A stretch of 64,000 bases of DNA from the IMG/VR virus record IMGVR_UViG_3300044539_000240; one strand, written 5' to 3'. Origin of the DNA: a virus. Below are positions 50-58,908 of this stretch, in pieces. Positions within the stretch are counted from its first letter, which is position 1. Each line of letters begins with the position of its first letter. Under the pieces are notes generated by a model. That model saw only the letters and a list, made by a program, of their open reading frames with translations. It made no database searches and was not told the origin of the DNA. The translations under genes were made by a program, and so were the position numbers.

Positions 50-193
50 AAGTAATGATAATGTTGAAGTGCCGTCTCGCTCCAATACTTAACTGCCTTC
101 CCAAGTTTTACGGTGCACCGGCAGATGGCTTAAATTTCCTTGACCCAAGAAAGGTGTCGACTCCTTTTCTCTTGGAGAAACTCATTATCATTG

Positions 194-274
194 TGGGCAG
201 TAGTGGACTCGAACCACTCCCGAAAGGACCAGATTTACAGTCTGGCTGCCGTATCCGAACGACTTTTACTACCC
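194..274 (-). tRNA. tRNA-Tyr (anticodon GTA), bacterial type with long variable arm
   Basis: Acceptor GGGTAGT/ACTGCCC; anticodon stem CCAGA/TCTGG with loop CTGTAAA; variable arm TCCTTTCGGGA; T-arm AGTGG-TTCGAGT-CCACT; discriminator A. No encoded CCA. Confidence 0.7.
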
Positions 275-330
275 AATTTTTTGTATTGCTCAAATTTAAG
301 ACATTTTACTGCTCAAATTTTAGATTTTTG

Positions 331-401
331 TACCTCGAGAGGGAATTGAACCCCCACCATTTGTATGTAAGACAAATACGCTCCCGTTACGCCATCGAGG
401 C
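331..401 (-). tRNA. tRNA-Val (anticodon TAC)
   Basis: Acceptor GCCTCGA/TCGAGGT; D-stem GCGT/GCGT with wobbles; anticodon stem TTTGT/ACAAA, loop CTTACAT; T-arm GGGGG-TTCAATT-CCCTC; discriminator A. Confidence 0.75.
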
Positions 402-578
402 AAAATGTATGTTTCTGAACTTCCCACTTATAAACATACAAACTAAGTGCATCCGTACCGAGAAATGGTATCGAGCCATTCTAGAAATAGATATGAGCCA
501 TCTCCGGTCACCTGACCCCTCGGCATTTTGGTGGACATAGATTCATCATCTATTCTTGGGTTTCCACCGAACCCGTTG

Positions 579-650
579 AGGTGATAGTAGGAATCGAACC
601 CACCTAGCTGAGTTTGCAATCCAGCGCCTAAACCACTCGACCATATCACC
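579..650 (-). tRNA. tRNA-Cys (anticodon GCA) candidate; D-stem and anticodon stem imperfect
   Basis: Perfect acceptor GGTGATA/TATCACC; T-arm GTGGG-TTCGATT-CCTAC; anticodon loop TTGCAAA closed by a 4 bp stem plus an A-C mismatch; D-arm irregular. Confidence 0.5.
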
Positions 651-657
651 ATTTTTG

Positions 658-729
658 TTACCCCTGAGAGAATCGAACTCCCCCCGCATGGACCAAAACC
701 ATGTGTACTAACCGATATACGAAGGGGCA
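658..729 (-). tRNA. tRNA-Gln (anticodon TTG)
   Basis: Acceptor TGCCCCT/AGGGGTA; D-stem GTAT/GTAC; anticodon stem CATGG/CCATG, loop TTTTGGT; T-arm GGGAG-TTCGATT-CTCTC. Confidence 0.75.
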
Positions 730-735
730 AAATTG

Positions 736-819
736 AGGAAGACATGGGAATCGAACCCACAACGGTGTTACCCGCTACTTGTTTTCAAGACAAGCTCCTC
801 GTCCATTCGGCCGCCTTCC
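736..819 (-). tRNA. tRNA-Ser (anticodon TGA), type II with long variable arm; D-arm irregular
   Basis: Acceptor GGAAGGC/GTCTTCC; anticodon stem CTTGT/ACAAG, loop CTTGAAA; variable arm AGCGG..CCGTT hairpin; T-arm GTGGG-TTCGATT-CCCAT. Confidence 0.55.
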
Positions 820-3749: not shown

Positions 3750-5414
3750 ATGAGAGTATTAGGATTTTCGGTAGGACACGATAAAGGTGCGGTTATCATA
3801 GAAAATGGAAAAGTTGTGGTGGGTATCACCCAAGAAAGATTATCTAGGATAAAACACGATGGTGCATATCAAGGGGGATTAATTCCTTTTGAATCCATAA
3901 ACTATTGTTTAAATTATTTGAGTATTACTCATAGGGATATAGACTTATTTGTTTATAGTACCACTGAAATAACCGATGATGTTGATTTTCAGTTTTTTAA
4001 CAAATATCATGATTTAAAGAGGGAAAAACTTAAATTTTTACCTCACCATTTGGCACACGCATACTCAACATTTTTTAGTTCAGGTTTTGAAGAATCTGCA
4101 ATAATCGTTGCGGACGCATCCGGAAGTATTTTAAGTTATAAAAACAAATTACACGAATGGTATGATGTTGATAGAACTGATTTAGACCCCGAAGAAGATT
4201 GGACCGAAGGAATTTCATTATTTCATTTTACAAAAAACGGATATAATGAAGTTTATAAAAAATGGATAAAATATCCTGTACCTATTGACACCAATGAAGG
4301 TGTTTCCGTTGGAACTGTTTATTCAACAGGTTCTTTACAATTAATTTATGAACCAAATGAACACACTTGGCCCGCAGGTAAATTAATGGGATTGGCGTCA
4401 TACGCTGATAAATCAATTGTGGATGAGGCACCTGAATACGCTCAAGAATTAGAGAATGATATATTCATACCAAATAATACAATTTACCCAAAAGTAACTT
4501 GGCAATCCGATTTTTTCTCAAGAGCGTGTGTTGCCGGAATTTACCAAAAAGAACAAGAAAGGTCTTCTTTAATTTTAGCTAAAATTGCAAAAAACTTAAC
4601 AAAATCTTCAAATGTTTGTGTTGCCGGTGGGTCATTCTTAAATTGTAATTCAAATGAGGTTATATTAAAATCAGGATTATACGAAAATTCTTATTTCTTG
4701 GCGCCAAGTGATGATAGTGGAATACCGTTAGGATGTGCTTGGTATGCGTATCAACAATTGATAGATATTACATCAGTTGAACCTATGTCACCTTATTTTG
4801 GTAAAACATATTCAAAACAAGAAATCATAACGGCAATTAATAACTACCCTGGATTAAATGTAGTTGAACACACTAAAGAAAGTGATTTAATTAAAGAAGT
4901 TACACATTGGTTAACCCAAAATAGAGTTATTGGATGGTTCCAAGGTGGTTCAGAAATTGGACCGAGAGCATTAGGTAATCGTTCAATATTGGCATCCCCA
5001 ATTCAAAAATGGATGTCAGGTCATATTAATGGAGATATCAAACATAGAGAATGGTATCGTCCGTTTGCCCCGGCAGTTTTATTTGAACATCAATCTGAAG
5101 TCTTTGAATCAGATGTTTATTCACCTCATATGTTGGTGACCACATCAGTTAAAGAAGAATGGAGAGAGAAAATACCTGCAGTTACTCACATTGATTATTC
5201 TGCTAGACATCAATCCGTAACCAAAGAAAATAACCCAAAATTTTATTCACTAATCAATTCGTTTTATGATGAAACCGGTGTTCCTGTTTTACTTAACACA
5301 AGTTTTAATGGTCCACACGAACCAATTGTTGAAACTCCTGAAGAAGCAATTAAAACATTTATTTCAAACAAACTTGACATATTAGTAATCGATAATTTTA
5401 TTATAAGTAGATAA
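3750..5414 (+). CDS. carbamoyltransferase, NodU/CmcH/TobZ family (copy 1)
   Basis: N-domain motifs GITQERLSRIKHDG and HHLAHAYSTFFSSGF..AIIVADASG (Kae1/HypF-like fold); C-domain GWFQGGSEIGPRALGNRSILASP (carbamoyltransferase C signature). Confidence 0.8.
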   Translation: MRVLGFSVGHDKGAVIIENGKVVVGITQERLSRIKHDGAYQGGLIPFESINYCLNYLSITHRDIDLFVYSTTEITDDVDFQFFNKYHDLKREKLKFLPHHLAHAYSTFFSSGFEESAIIVADASGSILSYKNKLHEWYDVDRTDLDPEEDWTEGISLFHFTKNGYNEVYKKWIKYPVPIDTNEGVSVGTVYSTGSLQLIYEPNEHTWPAGKLMGLASYADKSIVDEAPEYAQELENDIFIPNNTIYPKVTWQSDFFSRACVAGIYQKEQERSSLILAKIAKNLTKSSNVCVAGGSFLNCNSNEVILKSGLYENSYFLAPSDDSGIPLGCAWYAYQQLIDITSVEPMSPYFGKTYSKQEIITAINNYPGLNVVEHTKESDLIKEVTHWLTQNRVIGWFQGGSEIGPRALGNRSILASPIQKWMSGHINGDIKHREWYRPFAPAVLFEHQSEVFESDVYSPHMLVTTSVKEEWREKIPAVTHIDYSARHQSVTKENNPKFYSLINSFYDETGVPVLLNTSFNGPHEPIVETPEEAIKTFISNKLDILVIDNFIISR

Positions 5415-5417
5415 TTT

Positions 5418-7007
5418 ATGAGTTCAATTTATGGATTCTTTACCGGGTCGCATAGTCCATCTATTGCATTAATTAGAGACGGTAAAATAACATTTTGTAT
5501 CGAGGAAGAGAGATTAACCCGAATAAAATCCGGTGATAATTACGATATTAATTGTGAATTATCATGTATTGAGGCGGAAAAATATACAGGTCTAAAAATA
5601 ACAGATGCCGATTACCGAATCTTTGCAAATCCAACACCGGACGAATTTGCCCGTAAAATTACCAACAATAATTATGAAAAAGTTAGTCACCATACCGCAC
5701 ACGCATATGGGGCTTACTACACCAGTGGAATGAAAGGTAAATCAATTACCATCACATACGATGGTGGAGGTGAAAGTACCGTAATGAAAGTTTATCTATG
5801 TAATAATGGAAAAATGACTTTAATCCAAAGTCATCCATTGGCTTCATTTGGTAGTCTTTCTCACGTTTGGGGATTCAGTACATCCTCGATGAGAGGATAT
5901 GACGAACATGGTGAGGGAATATGGAAAATGTGTAAAGATGAAGGTAAATTAATGGGTATGGGTCCAAATGGTCATTACGATGAGACAATTTATAATATGT
6001 TGTCCACTGTAATTAATTATAAGGATTTTAGATTTTACCCATCCGGGTCATCAAGTAAAACCATGTTTTTAGGTGACATGATGAAATCCAATGGATATTT
6101 CGATACTCAAGAAAAAATGGAAATCTATTCATTTAATTTACAAAAACGAACAGAAGACCTATTCCTAAAATTTATTGACGACTTACATAATTTATATCCT
6201 GAATATAAGCAATTATGCTTATCCGGAGGACTATTTGCCAATGTAAAATTAAATCAAAAACTCAACGAATTAGAATGGATTGACGAAATTTATATTTACC
6301 CACCAATGGGTGATGAAGGTTTGTCATTAGGAGCCTGTATCTATAAAGCTGTCGAATTGGGTGAGATTACTGAACCAATTGAACTAACTAATGTTTATTT
6401 TGGGAAGTCATACAATAATGATGAAATACAGGAAATCTCAAAAGATTATAGTTTTAAGAGAGAACCATATAATCCGAAAGATATCGCAAATTATATCAAT
6501 CAAGGAGGAATCGTTGGATGGTTTCAAAATGGTTCCGAATTCGGTCCAAGGTCTTTAGGAGCTCGAAGTATTTTAGTTAGACCAACCGAAATCTCAACAC
6601 ACAAATTATTAAATAAAAGATTAAATCGATATGATACAATGCCATTTGCACCAATTATATTAGAAGAATCATTTGACAATATTTTTATACCATCAAAATC
6701 AAAATACACATCTGAGTTTATGACATTATGTTACAACACAAAAGATGAGTGGATTGATAAGATACCTGCAGTTATACAAAAGTCAGATAAAACTGCTCGA
6801 CCCCAAATAGTTAAAAGGTCTAAAACACCTAAATTTTGGGAAATATTAAATGAATATTATATGTTATCAGGAATACCATTATTATTGAATACATCATTTA
6901 ATTCACACAATCAACCAATCATTGAAAACCCGGAACAAGCATTTGAGTCATTAAAACTTGGGGTCATTGATAAATTAATAATAGAAGATTATGTTTATTT
7001 CCCTTAA
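5418..7007 (+). CDS. carbamoyltransferase, NodU/CmcH family (copy 2, divergent paralog of 3750..5414)
   Basis: Same motifs: EEERLTRIKSGD, HHTAHAYGAYYTSG, GWFQNGSEFGPRSLGARSILVRP, LLNTSFN. Starts 4 nt after copy 1. Confidence 0.8.
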   Translation: MSSIYGFFTGSHSPSIALIRDGKITFCIEEERLTRIKSGDNYDINCELSCIEAEKYTGLKITDADYRIFANPTPDEFARKITNNNYEKVSHHTAHAYGAYYTSGMKGKSITITYDGGGESTVMKVYLCNNGKMTLIQSHPLASFGSLSHVWGFSTSSMRGYDEHGEGIWKMCKDEGKLMGMGPNGHYDETIYNMLSTVINYKDFRFYPSGSSSKTMFLGDMMKSNGYFDTQEKMEIYSFNLQKRTEDLFLKFIDDLHNLYPEYKQLCLSGGLFANVKLNQKLNELEWIDEIYIYPPMGDEGLSLGACIYKAVELGEITEPIELTNVYFGKSYNNDEIQEISKDYSFKREPYNPKDIANYINQGGIVGWFQNGSEFGPRSLGARSILVRPTEISTHKLLNKRLNRYDTMPFAPIILEESFDNIFIPSKSKYTSEFMTLCYNTKDEWIDKIPAVIQKSDKTARPQIVKRSKTPKFWEILNEYYMLSGIPLLLNTSFNSHNQPIIENPEQAFESLKLGVIDKLIIEDYVYFP

Positions 7008-22801: not shown

Positions 22802-24004
22802 TTGGGATTTATGAATAACATAGACAAACAATATCAGGACTTACTACAAGACATTCTTGATAATGGTGTGGAGAAAAAAGACAGAACCGGGACGGGAACA
22901 ATCTCAGTATTCGGAAGACAAATCAGACATAAAATGTCAGAAGGATTCCCATTACTTACGACCAAAAAGATGCCGTGGAAATCAATCGTCACAGAACTTC
23001 TTTGGTTCCTTCAAGGGGATACAAACATCAAATGGTTGGTCGATAATGGATGTAACATTTGGAATGGTGATGCTTATAAAAATTATCTACTATTAATGAT
23101 TGGTAATGAACCTGAAAAGATTTTATCAATGGATGATTTTATTGATAAGATAAAGAACGATGATAAGTTTGCCAAGAAGTGGGGTGATTTAGGTCCAATT
23201 TACGGTAAGCAATGGAGGAAATGGGCACCTGAATCGGGTGAGATTAATAAAGGTGGTGTAGACCAAATCGCAAACCTAATCAACGACCTTAAATCAAATC
23301 CAGACTCAAGACGATTAATGGTTAATGCTTGGAATGTTGGAGAATTAGACCAAATGGTTCTTCCACCTTGTCATTATGGATTTCAAGTTTATACAAGAGA
23401 GTTGAGTTTGGAAAGAAGATATAACATATGGTTTAATAACAATTATGAAACTGGTATGGAAAGGTTTTTTGACCCTAATAATTTACCTGATTTTGATAAT
23501 GATTATTATACACCAACACCGACAAGAGCAATATCTCTAATGTGGAATCAACGAAGTGTAGATACATTCTTAGGATTACCATTTAATATCGCATCTTATG
23601 GATTGTTATTAGAAATCATTGCAAAAGAAGTTAATATGGTTCCGGATGAATTGATTGGAAATCTTGGTGATGTTCACCTTTATTTAAATCATATTGAACA
23701 AGCAAAAGAACAACTTGGTAGAAAATTAACATTTGACGAAAGAACGGAAATGTTGAAAGACAAGATGGGTATTGATAAGTATAATAAAGAACTTTCAGAA
23801 CTTGTTCCGTTTGGTGGGGGTATGAGTGAATTTTACAAATATTATAAAATTCCATATGAAACAAGAGAACCTTATGATTTACCTACATTGAAATTCTCAC
23901 CTTGTCCAATAACCGGAATTGATATGGAATATCAATCAATTGCCCAATTTCAAATTGAGAACTATGAATCACATCCGGTAATTAAAGCTCCTTTGAGTAA
24001 TTAA
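22802..24004 (+). CDS. thyA: thymidylate synthase (ThyA family) with three insertions (400 aa)
   Basis: DRTGTGT, GFPLLTTKK, ELLWFLQGDTN, GPIYGKQWR, RRLMVNAWN, catalytic Cys in LPPCHYGFQV, DTFLGLPFNIASYGLL, HPVIKAP. Three insertions relative to the ~264 aa enzyme: about 30 aa after NIW, and about 30 and 50 aa in the C-terminal half. Confidence 0.85.
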   Translation: MGFMNNIDKQYQDLLQDILDNGVEKKDRTGTGTISVFGRQIRHKMSEGFPLLTTKKMPWKSIVTELLWFLQGDTNIKWLVDNGCNIWNGDAYKNYLLLMIGNEPEKILSMDDFIDKIKNDDKFAKKWGDLGPIYGKQWRKWAPESGEINKGGVDQIANLINDLKSNPDSRRLMVNAWNVGELDQMVLPPCHYGFQVYTRELSLERRYNIWFNNNYETGMERFFDPNNLPDFDNDYYTPTPTRAISLMWNQRSVDTFLGLPFNIASYGLLLEIIAKEVNMVPDELIGNLGDVHLYLNHIEQAKEQLGRKLTFDERTEMLKDKMGIDKYNKELSELVPFGGGMSEFYKYYKIPYETREPYDLPTLKFSPCPITGIDMEYQSIAQFQIENYESHPVIKAPLSN

Positions 24005-54990: not shown

Positions 54991-55383
54991 ATGGGAACAC
55001 ACAGAGTAAATTTTATAAAAAGTAATAAATTTTGGTTTGCGGATTTTACTGAAACCGAACTTACACCTAACATAAATGGAGTTAATCAAAGAAAACTATT
55101 ACCATTAACTCGTAATGGTTGGGATGAGTGGGTAGAAATAGTTTCCGAAAGTGATGATAATTTTTGGATGATTGTCTCCAATTCTGAACTTGTAGGGGGG
55201 ACCGAACTTAAATACCTTAATTTAACTACGGGAAACCCAAATCCAAACCAATGTGGGAATTGTTACGAATTCAAATCTTACAAAGGGGTTGAATATAATA
55301 TTAAATTTTTTATTTGTTCAAATGGGTTGGATTTTGTATTTGATGAAACTCCTTCTTCATGGTTTTTTAAAAGAGAATATTAA
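54991..55383 (+). CDS. hypothetical protein. Start corrected to MGTHRVNFIK (about 130 aa).
   Basis: The upstream part of the track ORF is low-complexity and overlaps a minus-strand mini-gene. Confidence 0.45.
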   Translation: MGTHRVNFIKSNKFWFADFTETELTPNINGVNQRKLLPLTRNGWDEWVEIVSESDDNFWMIVSNSELVGGTELKYLNLTTGNPNPNQCGNCYEFKSYKGVEYNIKFFICSNGLDFVFDETPSSWFFKREY

Positions 55384-55688
55384 GACTGAGTAAATTTTAC
55401 ATCGACACCATACTTCCATTCAAACCATTCAGAGATAAATTTATATGCCTCTTCATCGTTAGGGAAAAATAAATCCGAGAATCCACGACCAAACGAACTA
55501 TTAACATATAGTCTTCCATCAGTATGGTCATATTCCATCATAACCTCATCTTCAATATCATCTACTTCACCAGGATGATAGATAATAATAAACTCTTCGA
55601 AGTCAGATTCATACCCAATCCTATTTTCAATATATTCTTTTCTTAGGTCGTTTAATTTACTTTCTTTTATAATGTATTTCATATTCAA
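55380..55688 (-). CDS. N-terminal motif family member (MNMKYIIKESKLNDL), 102 aa
   Basis: I-I-K-E-S-K-L; GTATTTATTGAAT upstream. Confidence 0.55.
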   Translation of the reverse strand: MNMKYIIKESKLNDLRKEYIENRIGYESDFEEFIIIYHPGEVDDIEDEVMMEYDHTDGRLYVNSSFGRGFSDLFFPNDEEAYKFISEWFEWKYGVDVKFTQS

Positions 55689-56611: not shown

Positions 56612-56646
56612 AAAAAAACCCACCGATTAGGGTGGGTTTGTTTTTA
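56612..56646. terminator. intrinsic terminator (cccacc-gattag-ggtggg, A-run upstream, T-rich downstream)
   Basis: Between 55710..56576 and 56644..57453. Confidence 0.6.
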
Positions 56647-57453
56647 TTTTAACATTTCGTAAGCCCTAGCTAATCGTGTTAGTCCAATTCCCGCACCAAA
56701 TCTTGGGAAGAAATCATGAGATAAAAACTCTTCAAGTTCTTTTTCAACCCTTTCTTTACCAAATAGTTCAAACAACTTGGATGAATAACCTCCACCTTCA
56801 ATGGTATAAAACATTTCTCTCATCTTTTCAACATCACAACTTCTCTCAGCAGAACCAATTGTTTCTTGCCCAAACATAATAACATCAACTTTATTAAAAA
56901 TGTTATCTTCCCCGTGTTTCATATTCCAAAAGGGATTAGTTCTTATTGGAAAATTTTGAAGTGATACAATAGGTCCTTTTTCTTTCCACATTCTTGATTC
57001 GTGTTCATCTTCCAATATTCTAACACCACCATATTCCTCACACACATCTTCATAATTAACCTCAACCGGTGTTTCAAATCCAAGATGTTCAAGTAAGTCT
57101 TGTTCTAATTTCAACATTGTGTTCATGTCACCTTTAGATTCAAATTCAAACATTGGGAAAATTAATTCATGACGACCCGGGATAGGATTTTTCTCTTCTC
57201 TATATGAAGTTGAGATACAAAATACTCCGTCCCATTCAGGGTTTTTTAATAATTCATACTCCAACCACATCTGTCCGGTTTGTGGTAATGGCCATATTTC
57301 ACCACTATATTCGAATGTTTTTACCGAATGTGGATTTTCACATGCTGCCAAGATTGATAATCTACTTTGCGTAGGGACTTCCTTAAAGTTTCTTTCAAGG
57401 AAAAAAGTTCTCATTTTTTGTACCAGTTCGTGGTAAGTTTCTGTGTTTCTCAT
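56644..57453 (-). CDS. class II aminoacyl-tRNA-synthetase-like catalytic core without anticodon-binding domain (AsnA / EpmA / archaeal AS-AR-like), 269 aa
   Basis: Motif 2-like STSYREEKNPIPGRHELIFPMFEFE (cf. fRNE..RHnPEFTmlE) and motif 3-like GAGIGLTRLARA (cf. GGGIGxxRL). Confidence 0.6.
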   Translation of the reverse strand: MRNTETYHELVQKMRTFFLERNFKEVPTQSRLSILAACENPHSVKTFEYSGEIWPLPQTGQMWLEYELLKNPEWDGVFCISTSYREEKNPIPGRHELIFPMFEFESKGDMNTMLKLEQDLLEHLGFETPVEVNYEDVCEEYGGVRILEDEHESRMWKEKGPIVSLQNFPIRTNPFWNMKHGEDNIFNKVDVIMFGQETIGSAERSCDVEKMREMFYTIEGGGYSSKLFELFGKERVEKELEEFLSHDFFPRFGAGIGLTRLARAYEMLK

Positions 57454-57496: not shown

Positions 57497-57528
57497 CAAA
57501 AAAAATCCCTTCAAATAATGAAGGGATT
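57497..57528 (-). terminator. intrinsic terminator (aatcccttca-aataa-tgaagggatt)
   Basis: 10 bp stem; U-run on the minus strand. Downstream of a 51-aa mini-ORF (about 57641..57793, MKHILNNLSEEEKNAIREQ...). Confidence 0.6.
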
Positions 57529-57904: not shown

Positions 57905-58213
57905 TTAGTAAATTTTGTGAACTTTAATCCCATAATTCTCCAAAAACCACTCCTCCATTGTTGTTTTGGTTCTAACCCAACCTAAATCAAAAACATTTTC
58001 AAGGTGATTTACAATATGTTTTTTAAGTCCCGGTATTTCAATATACAAATTACCTGAATCCGTGGAATAATAAAAAATCACTTTATTATTTTCATTAACA
58101 AAATGTTTTAAATGAAGTCTTGGTTCATCAATTTCTTTTAATCCACCAAAAAAACCTCCAATATATTTGGAAATAAATTTATCTAATTGGTTTTCTGTTA
58201 TAACATATTTCAT
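57905..58213 (-). CDS. N-terminal motif family member (MKYVITENQLDKFI). Start corrected.
   Basis: The internal Met restores the family N-terminus and gives a TAA-N-ATG junction with the upstream gene. Confidence 0.55.
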   Translation of the reverse strand: MKYVITENQLDKFISKYIGGFFGGLKEIDEPRLHLKHFVNENNKVIFYYSTDSGNLYIEIPGLKKHIVNHLENVFDLGWVRTKTTMEEWFLENYGIKVHKIY

Positions 58214-58214
58214 A

Positions 58215-58535
58215 TTAAGCACATTTGTTCTTATGATATTTAACCAAGTAATCACCAAACTTGTCTACAAAATAATAGTAGAGAGAATCATTTTCTTCAG
58301 GTTTTAAAACGTAATCAAAGTCATTAACAAAGTAATCGTGATACATTTCAACCAAAGAATCACAGGCATTACTAACAAATTCACCAATATCATCATATTC
58401 ACATATGTCCATTTCATCAAGGATTCCCCACTCCAAATCATTCATCATGTTTTTAAATGGTAATCTTCTTCGTACTTCCGGTGATAACGATTCTGTTAAT
58501 AAAACGTATTGAGATTCAGTTATAACATATTTCAT
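58215..58535 (-). CDS. N-terminal motif family member (MKYVITESQYVLLTESL). Start corrected.
   Basis: N-terminus nearly identical to 48100..49131; TAA-N-ATG junction. Confidence 0.55.
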   Translation of the reverse strand: MKYVITESQYVLLTESLSPEVRRRLPFKNMMNDLEWGILDEMDICEYDDIGEFVSNACDSLVEMYHDYFVNDFDYVLKPEENDSLYYYFVDKFGDYLVKYHKNKCA

Positions 58536-58536
58536 C

Positions 58537-58908
58537 TTAGTTGATTGTTTTAACTGGCAAATCAAAATTCTTCATAAACCAATTTTTAAATGGTTCGTGC
58601 CACATATCACCAAAATAACCGTTTAATTTTATCTCATAATCATACTCAATACTGACCATAGGACAAATCTCTCTAGCAAGACTTTCCGGATTAAAGTAAT
58701 CACATTCGTGCCAATAAAAACAACCTTCATCTTCTCCTTCATAGTCCCCTATGTAAAACACAACCCGATTAACATCATCCCATTCTTCACCTGTCTCTAA
58801 ATCATAATCTAATGGATGTGTCCAATTAATATCATCTATATCAAAAAGACTATCCAAGTAATTGGTGATTGTTTCGTCCAGTTTACTTTCAGTTATTATG
58901 TATTTCAT
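58537..58908 (-). CDS. N-terminal motif family member (MKYIITESKLDETITNYLDSLFDIDDINWTHP), paralog of 46021..46386
   Basis: GTATTTATAATT upstream; first of a three-gene tandem array. Confidence 0.6.
   Translation of the reverse strand: MKYIITESKLDETITNYLDSLFDIDDINWTHPLDYDLETGEEWDDVNRVVFYIGDYEGEDEGCFYWHECDYFNPESLAREICPMVSIEYDYEIKLNGYFGDMWHEPFKNWFMKNFDLPVKTIN

Follow-up and report, generated by a model that had tools for sequence, protein, structure and literature searches.

The 64,000-nucleotide stretch of DNA examined here, from IMG/VR virus record IMGVR_UViG_3300044539_000240 and referred to as the window, carries on its minus strand an open reading frame (ORF), called X below, that starts with ATG and encodes 269 amino acids (Table 1). 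The protein resembles the catalytic core of asparaginyl-tRNA synthetase (AsnRS), and the genes found beside its relatives would place it in pyrimidine synthesis, next to dihydroorotate dehydrogenase (DHODH), rather than in translation. Both class II motifs recognized in the original prediction, motif 2 (S83-Y-R85-E-E87 ... G-R94-H95-E-L-I-F99-P-M-F-E103-F-E105) and motif 3, are present, and the Pfam family tRNA-synt_2 (PF00152) matches X with E=7.4e-14 and 52 bits (cut-off 25) over profile positions 23-289 of 308, i.e., the catalytic domain only. The anticodon-binding domain is absent, as had been noted: the protein starts at the catalytic core and, because its alignments to AsnRS and aspartyl-tRNA synthetase (AspRS) begin at approximately residue 140 of those enzymes, has no room for an N-terminal anticodon-binding domain of the oligonucleotide/oligosaccharide-binding (OB) fold. 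The AlphaFold model of X has a mean predicted local distance difference test score (pLDDT) of 96.8.

Since terminator-like hairpins follow both the stop codon of X and the upstream gene, X is predicted to be a separate single-gene transcription unit, read from a 50-nt AT-rich spacer in which no Shine-Dalgarno sequence is visible. Its phage origin is supported by close relatives on viral contigs in IMG/VR, the longest of them 318 kb, by a match to PHROG 29758 (E=7e-94), a phage family with no assigned function, and by a tRNA array in the same genome.

Family, active site and substrate pocket

X scores 15-23 bits against the curated NCBI equivalogs for AspRS(Asn), EpmA, AsnRS and archaeal AsnA, whose cut-offs are 264-414 bits, and therefore belongs to none of them. 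The AsnRS models TIGR00457 and NF003037 give 18.1 and 19 bits (cut-offs 342.6 and 414), and the model NF005053/NF005055 for AS-AR, the archaeal asparagine synthetase A, gives 15.8 bits (cut-off 322). When an X-family profile is compared with the PDB, AsnRS (2e-15) and archaeal AspRS (4e-14) score best, followed by AS-AR (5e-8; Pyrococcus abyssi 3p8t, P. furiosus 1nnh) and EpmA (2e-4); hhalign of the family gives probabilities of 96.7% for E. coli AsnRS, 89% for EpmA, 88% for AspRS (partial) and 3.8% for AsnA. The profile comparison called for by the original prediction thus upholds a class IIb kinship, closest to AsnRS itself, but not the suggested identity with E. coli AsnA (11as/12as), to which X has no significant sequence or profile similarity and whose Pfam family (AsnA) does not match it. 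The proposed EpmA identity fares no better: TIGR00462 gives 21.9 bits (cut-off 286.9), and at the site of the EpmA/PoxA/GenX lysine pocket (E-L-A-N-G-F-H-E) the X sequence reads E-T-I-G-S-A-E-R and includes a conserved arginine.

Conservation was read from 65 diverse family members and from a curated set of 15 proteins (phage, operon-linked and other cellular); the 65-sequence alignment was too diverse for locus scanning, for which an 11-sequence subset was used instead. Conserved among the 65 are Q58, T59, Q61, L64, E65, S83, R85, E87, R94, H95, F99, E103, E105, N177, K188, D190, E197, G200, S201, R204, R251 and R260, and additionally C38 and Y223, which are specific to the family. Residues R85, E87, R94-H95, D190, E197 and R260 and the glycine-rich motif 3 are identical in all 15 curated proteins and nearly invariant in the 65. 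The motif-2 and motif-3 arginines, on whose conservation the original prediction had staked its reading, are thus retained (R85 in 58 and R260 in 60 of the 65, both in 15 of 15). Moreover, all 31 signature positions agree across the curated set, the sole exception being a Glu-to-Asp change at position 103 in one Dependentiae protein. This agreement spans window, cyanophage, huge-phage, operon-linked bacterial and Candidate Phyla Radiation (CPR)/DPANN proteins at an overall identity of 51-58%, so the family looks isofunctional and gene context appears transferable between its members.

Compared with archaeal and eukaryotic AsnRS (P. horikoshii 1x54, human 8tc8, Brugia 2xti), X has the same scaffold of motifs 1, 2 and 3, the motif-2-loop Arg-His and a Leu/Glu/Arg side-chain pocket. 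It differs in lacking the N-terminal OB-fold, in an identity of only 22-23%, in the invariant residues Cys38, Asn177, Lys188, Tyr223 and Arg251, and in a distinct helical segment (208-244). In alignments with solved enzymes, the X elements Q-x-x-L-E, E103-x-E and G-S-A-E-R204 correspond to QLYLE, hvEaE and GGSMR of Brugia and human AsnRS, whereas Thermococcus kodakarensis AspRS has QLYKQ and siDsE. Leu64-Glu65 is accordingly the AsnRS signature (Lys-Gln in AspRS), and Glu103 is of the AsnRS type (Asp in AspRS); counterparts of the AspRS beta-carboxylate binders (K198 and D233 in E. coli) were not found in X, where Leu64 and Glu103 stand instead. A survey of synthetase-ligand contacts lists Lys and Arg as the determinants of AspRS, and Glu and Arg plus a pocket Leu with a bound water as those of AsnRS (PMC7387524). 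Judged by these residues, the amino-acid pocket of X (Leu64, Glu103, Arg204) is of the Asn type, and neither Asp- nor Lys-type.

The family is large. Each of two word-indexed searches returned at least 8000 homologues, 180 clusters at E<1e-30 emerged from 1.84 billion scanned cluster representatives, and a scan of one genome per species gave 408 X loci at 55-73% identity. Database labels include "aspartyl/asparaginyl-tRNA synthetase", "tRNA ligase", "hypothetical" and even "transposase". Cellular carriers comprise CPR bacteria (Saccharibacteria, Nomurabacteria and others), DPANN archaea, Dependentiae, Coxiellaceae, Simkaniaceae, Bdellovibrio-like bacteria, Weeksellaceae and Chitinophagaceae. 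X is also found in jumbo phages and in giant-virus metagenome-assembled genomes (GVMAGs), the latter at 46-59% identity (IMG/VR contigs L270-L297 and L298-L377); the BFVD entry A0A481Z9R2 of Pithovirus LCPAC304 is a further giant-virus example. Known phage members are those of three huge phages and of the cyanophages P-SSM2, P-SSM5 and P-SSM7, where the gene is labelled "tRNA ligase" (T4-GC194). The T4-GC194 proteins (PSSM2_198, PSSM7_129), like PHROG 29758, are true family members, with 53% identity and all signature residues in common with X; a comparative study of cyanophages lists T4-GC194 under "other functions" and assigns it no role (PMC3037559). One 4740-aa cluster representative (P0231) matches X in 25 separate stretches and may be a tandem-repeat polyprotein or an artefact of assembly or gene calling. 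The fold and the recruitment of synthetase cores to metabolism are already known; for the family itself, its function, its distribution and its link to pyrD, pyrE and pyrF, we found no account in a full-text search of an incomplete literature collection.

Pyrimidine genes beside X in cells and viruses

To characterize X neighbourhoods in cells, ORFs were clustered in 80 species-representative genomes. In 16-17 of these, pyrE, pyrF and/or pyrD lie within 3 kb of X, and the commonest neighbour family (17 loci) consists of phosphoribosyltransferase, orotidine monophosphate (OMP) decarboxylase and DHODH proteins. Among the linked genomes are those of Coxiellaceae, other Gammaproteobacteria, Bdellovibrio-like bacteria, Dependentiae and Chitinophagaceae. 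At one locus (L205), X-pyrE-pyrF-pyrD share a strand, and their stop codons overlap the following start codons; six further contigs with 8-10-kb flanks (L259 and L261-L265) are arranged similarly, as X-pyrE-pyrF or X-pyrD-pyrE-pyrF. The phosphoribosyltransferase of the operons is a true PyrE (NF010382, E=1e-66, above the cut-off). No amidohydrolase, dihydroorotase, aspartate carbamoyltransferase (ATCase) or carbamoyl-phosphate synthetase gene is annotated within 8-10 kb of these six operons, and a search with the E. coli type II enzyme as the only query detected no homologue of pyrC in 2.2 Mb of loci centred on X or pyrE. A single DPANN contig (L197) has X followed by pyrB.

Gene fusions connect X to the same enzymes. 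The protein P0125 joins a DHODH (residues 5-307) to X (residues 374-634) and is encoded on seven contigs next to a divergently transcribed PyrE-PyrF fusion; P0148 joins X to OMP decarboxylase and adjoins pyrE and pyrD. At a further locus (L215), X lies beside a DHODH-PyrE-PyrF triple fusion.

The association extends to viruses. In a reverse test of 80 viral pyrE-pyrF loci, DHODH lay within 2.5 kb in 10, and X was present in nine of these ten and in none of the 70 loci without a nearby DHODH. Giant-virus and large phage contigs hold DHODH, X and PyrE-PyrF together, and a 482-kb viral contig (L298) has X followed by DHODH on one strand. GVMAG contigs with X often also encode PyrE-PyrF fusions and DHODH, and in one case PyrB, which suggests that nucleocytoviruses encode some steps of de novo pyrimidine synthesis. 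In a set of 50,697 phage records, X and pyrE occur in exactly the same cyanophage isolates (P-SSM2, P-SSM5 and P-SSM7), the two genes lying 17-116 kb apart; pyrE of P-SSM2 has also been recorded elsewhere (PMC1079782). The distance between X and pyrE is at most 1.5 kb on four cyanophage-type contigs, and these gave the only matches in a tblastn search of the window and all phage loci for pyrD, pyrE and pyrF. The huge phages LR756501, LR756503 and LR756508 carry X, and pyrE is not detectable in them.

Two other neighbours of X recur in cells. In eight CPR loci, from Saccharibacteria and others (L192, L200, L203, L212, L223, L232, L248 and L256), the gene before X encodes Dus, a tRNA-dihydrouridine synthase (E up to 1e-66); this flavoenzyme is a homologue of DHODH, and in the X operons L188, L215 and L225 the "DHODH" genes match both the DHO_dh and the Dus profiles. 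In ten Flavobacteriales genomes (Table 1), an ATP-dependent phosphoenolpyruvate (PEP) carboxykinase gene stands directly upstream of X, and in three Legionellales-like loci (L262-L264) a PEP carboxykinase gene lies just past the X-pyrE-pyrF operon. This proximity could be a link to the supply of oxaloacetate/aspartate or CO2, or a coincidence.

tRNA-Asn genes, neighbours and possible host of the window phage

In P-SSM2, P-SSM5 and P-SSM7, a tRNA-Asn(GUU) gene of 86-88 nt lies within about 10 nt past X (Table 1). The same holds for cyanophage-type viral contigs: of 56, 52 have a tRNA-Asn past X, three more have a variant call, and the last has no tRNA by ARAGORN but a visibly similar sequence. 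At these 52 IMG/VR loci (among L095-L173), the tRNA is 83-95 nt long and starts 5-20 nt past the X stop codon. It is class II-shaped: its variable arm is long, its D stem has 3 bp, its discriminator is G73, and its loop contains an invariant G-U-U-U segment, i.e., U37, and in some cases C33. Because 18 of its 24 pairs covary, this tRNA is real. The X/tRNA pair occupies differing genome positions in P-SSM2 and P-SSM7. No tRNA-Asn stands beside X in 60 loci of the window clade, in 60 cellular loci or in the huge phages, so the link is specific to one clade; the window phage differs from the T4-GC194 cyanophages in having neither this tRNA nor pyrE adjacent to X. In the RefSeq record NC_006883.2 (P-SSM2), tRNA-Asn PSSM2_199 is annotated at 164094-164179, inside a coding sequence, whereas ARAGORN and Rfam place it at 162082-162169, directly past PSSM2_198; the coordinates in the record appear to be shifted.

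In the window, Rfam and ARAGORN identify five tRNAs only. Their array continues on a matching 171-kb contig (L006) to 26 tRNAs covering 20 amino-acid specificities; the part outside the window includes an ordinary 73-nt tRNA-Asn, and the array also holds an unusually long tRNA-Thr(UGU) and a short tRNA-Leu(UAG).

Four small paralogous ORFs flank X, all starting M(N)MKY(I/V)IxE(S/N)(K/Q)L... and matching no family; its 288-aa neighbour has no PHROG match, and its phage neighbours have no Pfam domain on record. A PHROG search with ten large window ORFs matched only a thymidylate synthase and two families without assigned function; the presence of the thymidylate synthase suggests an investment of the phage in pyrimidine supply. 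The window also has two tandem carbamoyltransferase genes of the NodU/CmcH type, for which the Pfam domains Carbam_trans_N/C are found on the matching contig; carbamoyltransferases also occur among the sporadic genes of cyanophages (PMC3037559).

Three contigs of freshwater Bacteroidota metagenome-assembled genomes (L179, L180 and L181, labelled Spirosoma, Cytophagaceae and Fluviicola) encode X at 72-82% identity to the window protein. True cellular copies, at 55-62%, fall far short of this, so the three contigs probably belong to phages and were binned together with the host. Together with the missing Shine-Dalgarno sequence before X and the 31% G+C of the phage, they hint at a Bacteroidota host.

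Table 1. Coordinates of X, its motifs and the other features discussed; positions refer to the window unless another locus is named.
Feature	Locus	Position	Strand	Description
X	window	56644..57453	-	269-aa stand-alone class IIb aminoacyl-tRNA synthetase-like catalytic core, AsnRS-like, without anticodon-binding domain
Q-T-G-Q-M-W-L-E, residues 58-65 of X	window	57259..57282	-	Counterpart of the AspRS QSPQ motif (residue alignment; PMC7387524)
Motif 2, residues 83-105 of X	window	57139..57207	-	Arg85 (ATP/carboxylate), Glu87, Arg94-His95, Phe99, Glu103-x-Glu105
E-T-I-G-S-A-E-R, residues 197-204 of X	window	56842..56865	-	Glu197, metal/ATP site; Arg204, counterpart of the side-chain-binding Arg of AsnRS and AspRS
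Motif 3, residues 251-264 of X	window	56662..56703	-	R-F-G-A-G-I-G-L-T-R-L-A-R-A, with motif-3 Arg260
Terminator-like hairpin	window	56616..56639	-	Nine pairs, then a T run; begins 5 nt past the X stop codon
Terminator-like hairpin of the upstream gene	window	57504..57528	-	Ends the upstream gene
Small paralogous ORFs	window	55380-55688, 57905-58258, 58215-58565, 58537-58908	-	102-123 aa
Thymidylate synthase	window	22802-24004	+	PHROG 160, E=3e-110
Carbamoyltransferase genes	window	3750-5414, 5418-7007	+	NodU/CmcH type, tandem
tRNA array	window	193-819		Five tRNAs
tRNA array	L006	11067-17874		26 tRNAs
tRNA-Thr(UGU)	L006	17119-17202		84 nt
tRNA-Leu(UAG)	L006	16777-16852		76 nt
tRNA-Asn past X	L001 (P-SSM7)	6778-6864		
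tRNA-Asn past X	L002 (P-SSM2)	6786-6873		
tRNA-Asn past X	L003 (P-SSM5)	6765-6852		
PEP carboxykinase-X	L190, L196, L202, L207, L211, L216, L222, L239, L244, L254			Weeksellaceae/Flavobacteriales

Candidate reactions and their implications

The de novo synthesis of uridine monophosphate (UMP) is a textbook pathway of six steps, and we know of no enzyme other than dihydroorotase that closes the ring to dihydroorotate. Given the operons, fusions and co-occurrence in unrelated lineages, we infer that X acts in the orotate branch next to DHODH, where the simplest assignment would be the step that makes dihydroorotate. We therefore tentatively read X as an ATP-driven, tRNA-independent dihydroorotate-forming enzyme just upstream of DHODH, at a probability of roughly 0.42. 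The general idea of the original prediction, a tRNA-independent paralog that forms acyl-adenylates, remains the best fit, even though the identities it named, EpmA and E. coli-type AsnA, found no support; the chemistry on elongation factor P (EF-P) or a carrier protein that it envisaged also gives way, since the pyrD, pyrE and pyrF operons and fusions of the relatives indicate pyrimidines instead of Asn, EF-P or a carrier protein.

The exact substrate and chemistry are a matter of speculation. X would bind ATP and an Asn/Asp-shaped acid, form an acyl-adenylate and make an amide bond without tRNA. Specifically, it may adenylate the beta-carboxylate of N-carbamoyl-L-aspartate, after which the ureido nitrogen would close the ring to give dihydroorotate, AMP and pyrophosphate. 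AsnA, a paralog of AspRS/AsnRS, adenylates the beta-carboxyl of Asp and then amidates it (PMC5370406); with N-carbamoyl-aspartate as the substrate of such chemistry, the amide formed would be the ring bond of dihydroorotate. The reaction would thus be an irreversible, ATP-driven substitute for dihydroorotase that resembles asparagine synthetase A. PyrC, the dihydroorotase of the amidohydrolase superfamily, would have the same product and pathway position (carbamoyl-aspartate to dihydroorotate, feeding PyrD), but it has an unrelated fold (a Zn TIM-barrel) and is ATP-independent and reversible, so X would be its analogue and not its homologue. We did not find an ATP-dependent dihydroorotase described in the same incomplete literature collection. 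In the window phage, X would serve as an auxiliary metabolic gene that channels carbon and nitrogen of the host towards UMP, dTMP and dCTP and thus towards DNA replication, a putative role that we infer by homology only.

Several observations weigh against this assignment. The window contains no pyrD, pyrE or pyrF, and none lies within 3 kb on either side of X in 60 close relatives. In Saccharibacteria and at all DPANN loci except L197, X neighbours Dus, DNA polymerase III, nucleases and similar genes, not pyr genes. The cyanophage X/tRNA-Asn module is not accounted for by a role in pyrimidine synthesis. Finally, the family retains E39, T59 and Q61, which we take to be the counterparts of the residues that bind the alpha-amino group in AspRS. 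Together with the AsnRS-type pocket, this triad would accommodate free Asn in the canonical way no less well than a flipped carbamoyl-aspartate.

The pocket leads directly to an alternative that keeps X in the same place in the pathway and that we consider unlikely, i.e., a one-enzyme bypass starting from Asn. Here, X would form Asn-AMP, CO2 or bicarbonate would add to the alpha-amine, and the nitrogen of the side-chain amide would complete the six-membered ureide ring, for example via an N-carboxyanhydride, yielding dihydroorotate without carbamoyl phosphate, ATCase or dihydroorotase. Both the Leu64, Glu103, Arg204 pocket and the alpha-amino triad are fully conserved, and by our own chemical reasoning dihydroorotate contains all atoms of Asn plus one carbonyl carbon. 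Compact modules of X, DHODH, PyrE and PyrF occur in reduced genomes and viruses; because pyrB, pyrC and carAB are not nearby, such modules would make most sense if their input were a common metabolite, and skipping the feedback-controlled entry steps would suit viruses. The tRNA linked to X in cyanophages also names Asn. However, the reaction is without precedent, amide nitrogens are weak nucleophiles, no CO2 site can be recognized from the sequence, and the adjacency of X and pyrB at L197 favours carbamoyl-aspartate as the substrate. An equally doubtful variant would convert asparagine (or aspartate), CO2 and ATP directly to dihydroorotate, thereby skipping carbamoyl-phosphate synthetase, ATCase and dihydroorotase. 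X, DHODH and PyrE-PyrF would then form a portable "amino acid to UMP" module of two to four genes, shared by phages, giant viruses, CPR/DPANN symbionts and intracellular bacteria, and the long-arm tRNA-Asn of cyanophages might be part of the same asparagine economy.

No more probable than these is an ammonia-dependent asparagine synthetase of the AsnA or AS-AR kind, which would supply Asn to AT-rich genomes. The carriers of X are low in G+C, and the window phage, cyanophages, CPR, DPANN and Dependentiae would all be Asn-hungry; the Asn-type pocket fits, as does the tight linkage of tRNA-Asn to X in 52-55 of the 56 cyanophage-type loci. Against it stand the scores for AS-AR and AsnA given above, X being nearer to AsnRS than to AS-AR, and the operons and fusions with pyrD, pyrE and pyrF, which it leaves unexplained; we know of no report of AS-AR in a pyr operon. 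In our own reading of its sequence, E. coli AsnA presumably keeps an AspRS-like Lys/Asp substrate pair, from which the Leu/Glu of X differs.

Still less likely is that X is a minimal AsnRS that charges RNA through contacts to the acceptor stem and discriminator only, the substrate being the long-variable-arm tRNA-Asn behind X in cyanophages and a phage or host tRNA-Asn in the window phage. AsnRS is the closest relative by fold and profile. The covarying cyanophage tRNA, with its GUU anticodon and G73, follows X by 5-20 nt and stays paired with it at differing genome positions, and the window phage has a tRNA-Asn of its own in the part of its array just outside the window. The anticodon is the major identity element of AsnRS, though, and X cannot read it; the tRNA is confined to the cyanophage clade, and here too the pyr operons and fusions are unexplained.

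A role without catalysis is very improbable. HisZ, a paralog of histidyl-tRNA synthetase, activates and regulates the short ATP-phosphoribosyltransferase HisG, and the pairing of a synthetase paralog with a phosphoribosyltransferase thus has a precedent; by analogy, X could assist PyrE or PyrD as a sensor or as a partner without catalytic activity. X and pyrE do form the tightest pair: they are translationally coupled at L205 and occur at L261 without other pyr genes, and the P-SSM2 and P-SSM7 records yielded no de novo pyrimidine gene besides these two. However, we found no loss or relaxation of the catalytic ATP-binding residues in X: all ATP, metal and adenylate-forming residues are strictly conserved, which a purely regulatory subunit would not need, and viral X tracks DHODH, not PyrE. 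An EpmA-like protein aminoacyl-transferase or an amino acid:carrier-protein ligase, the least credible of the candidates, is rejected on the pocket residues, the curated scores and the absence of partner genes, with no EF-P context found around X; membership in the E. coli-type AsnA family is likewise rejected on the hhalign result.

Catalytic cores of aminoacyl-tRNA synthetases have been recruited to metabolism in AsnA, HisZ, EpmA and BirA. The operons in at least four bacterial phyla, the two kinds of fusion, the viral clusters and the phyletic co-occurrence predict that a step next to DHODH has passed to an adenylating enzyme of AsnRS type in many parasites, symbionts and viruses. If so, X would add a further case of such recruitment and would represent a new enzyme, and possibly a new route, in a core pathway. 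Thousands of proteins now labelled "aspartyl/asparaginyl-tRNA synthetase", "tRNA ligase" or "hypothetical" could be re-annotated, and estimates of how far CPR, DPANN, Dependentiae and Legionellales can make pyrimidines, as read from their genomes, would change. An abundant viral auxiliary metabolic gene, with the at least 8000 homologues of its family, would thereby be identified.

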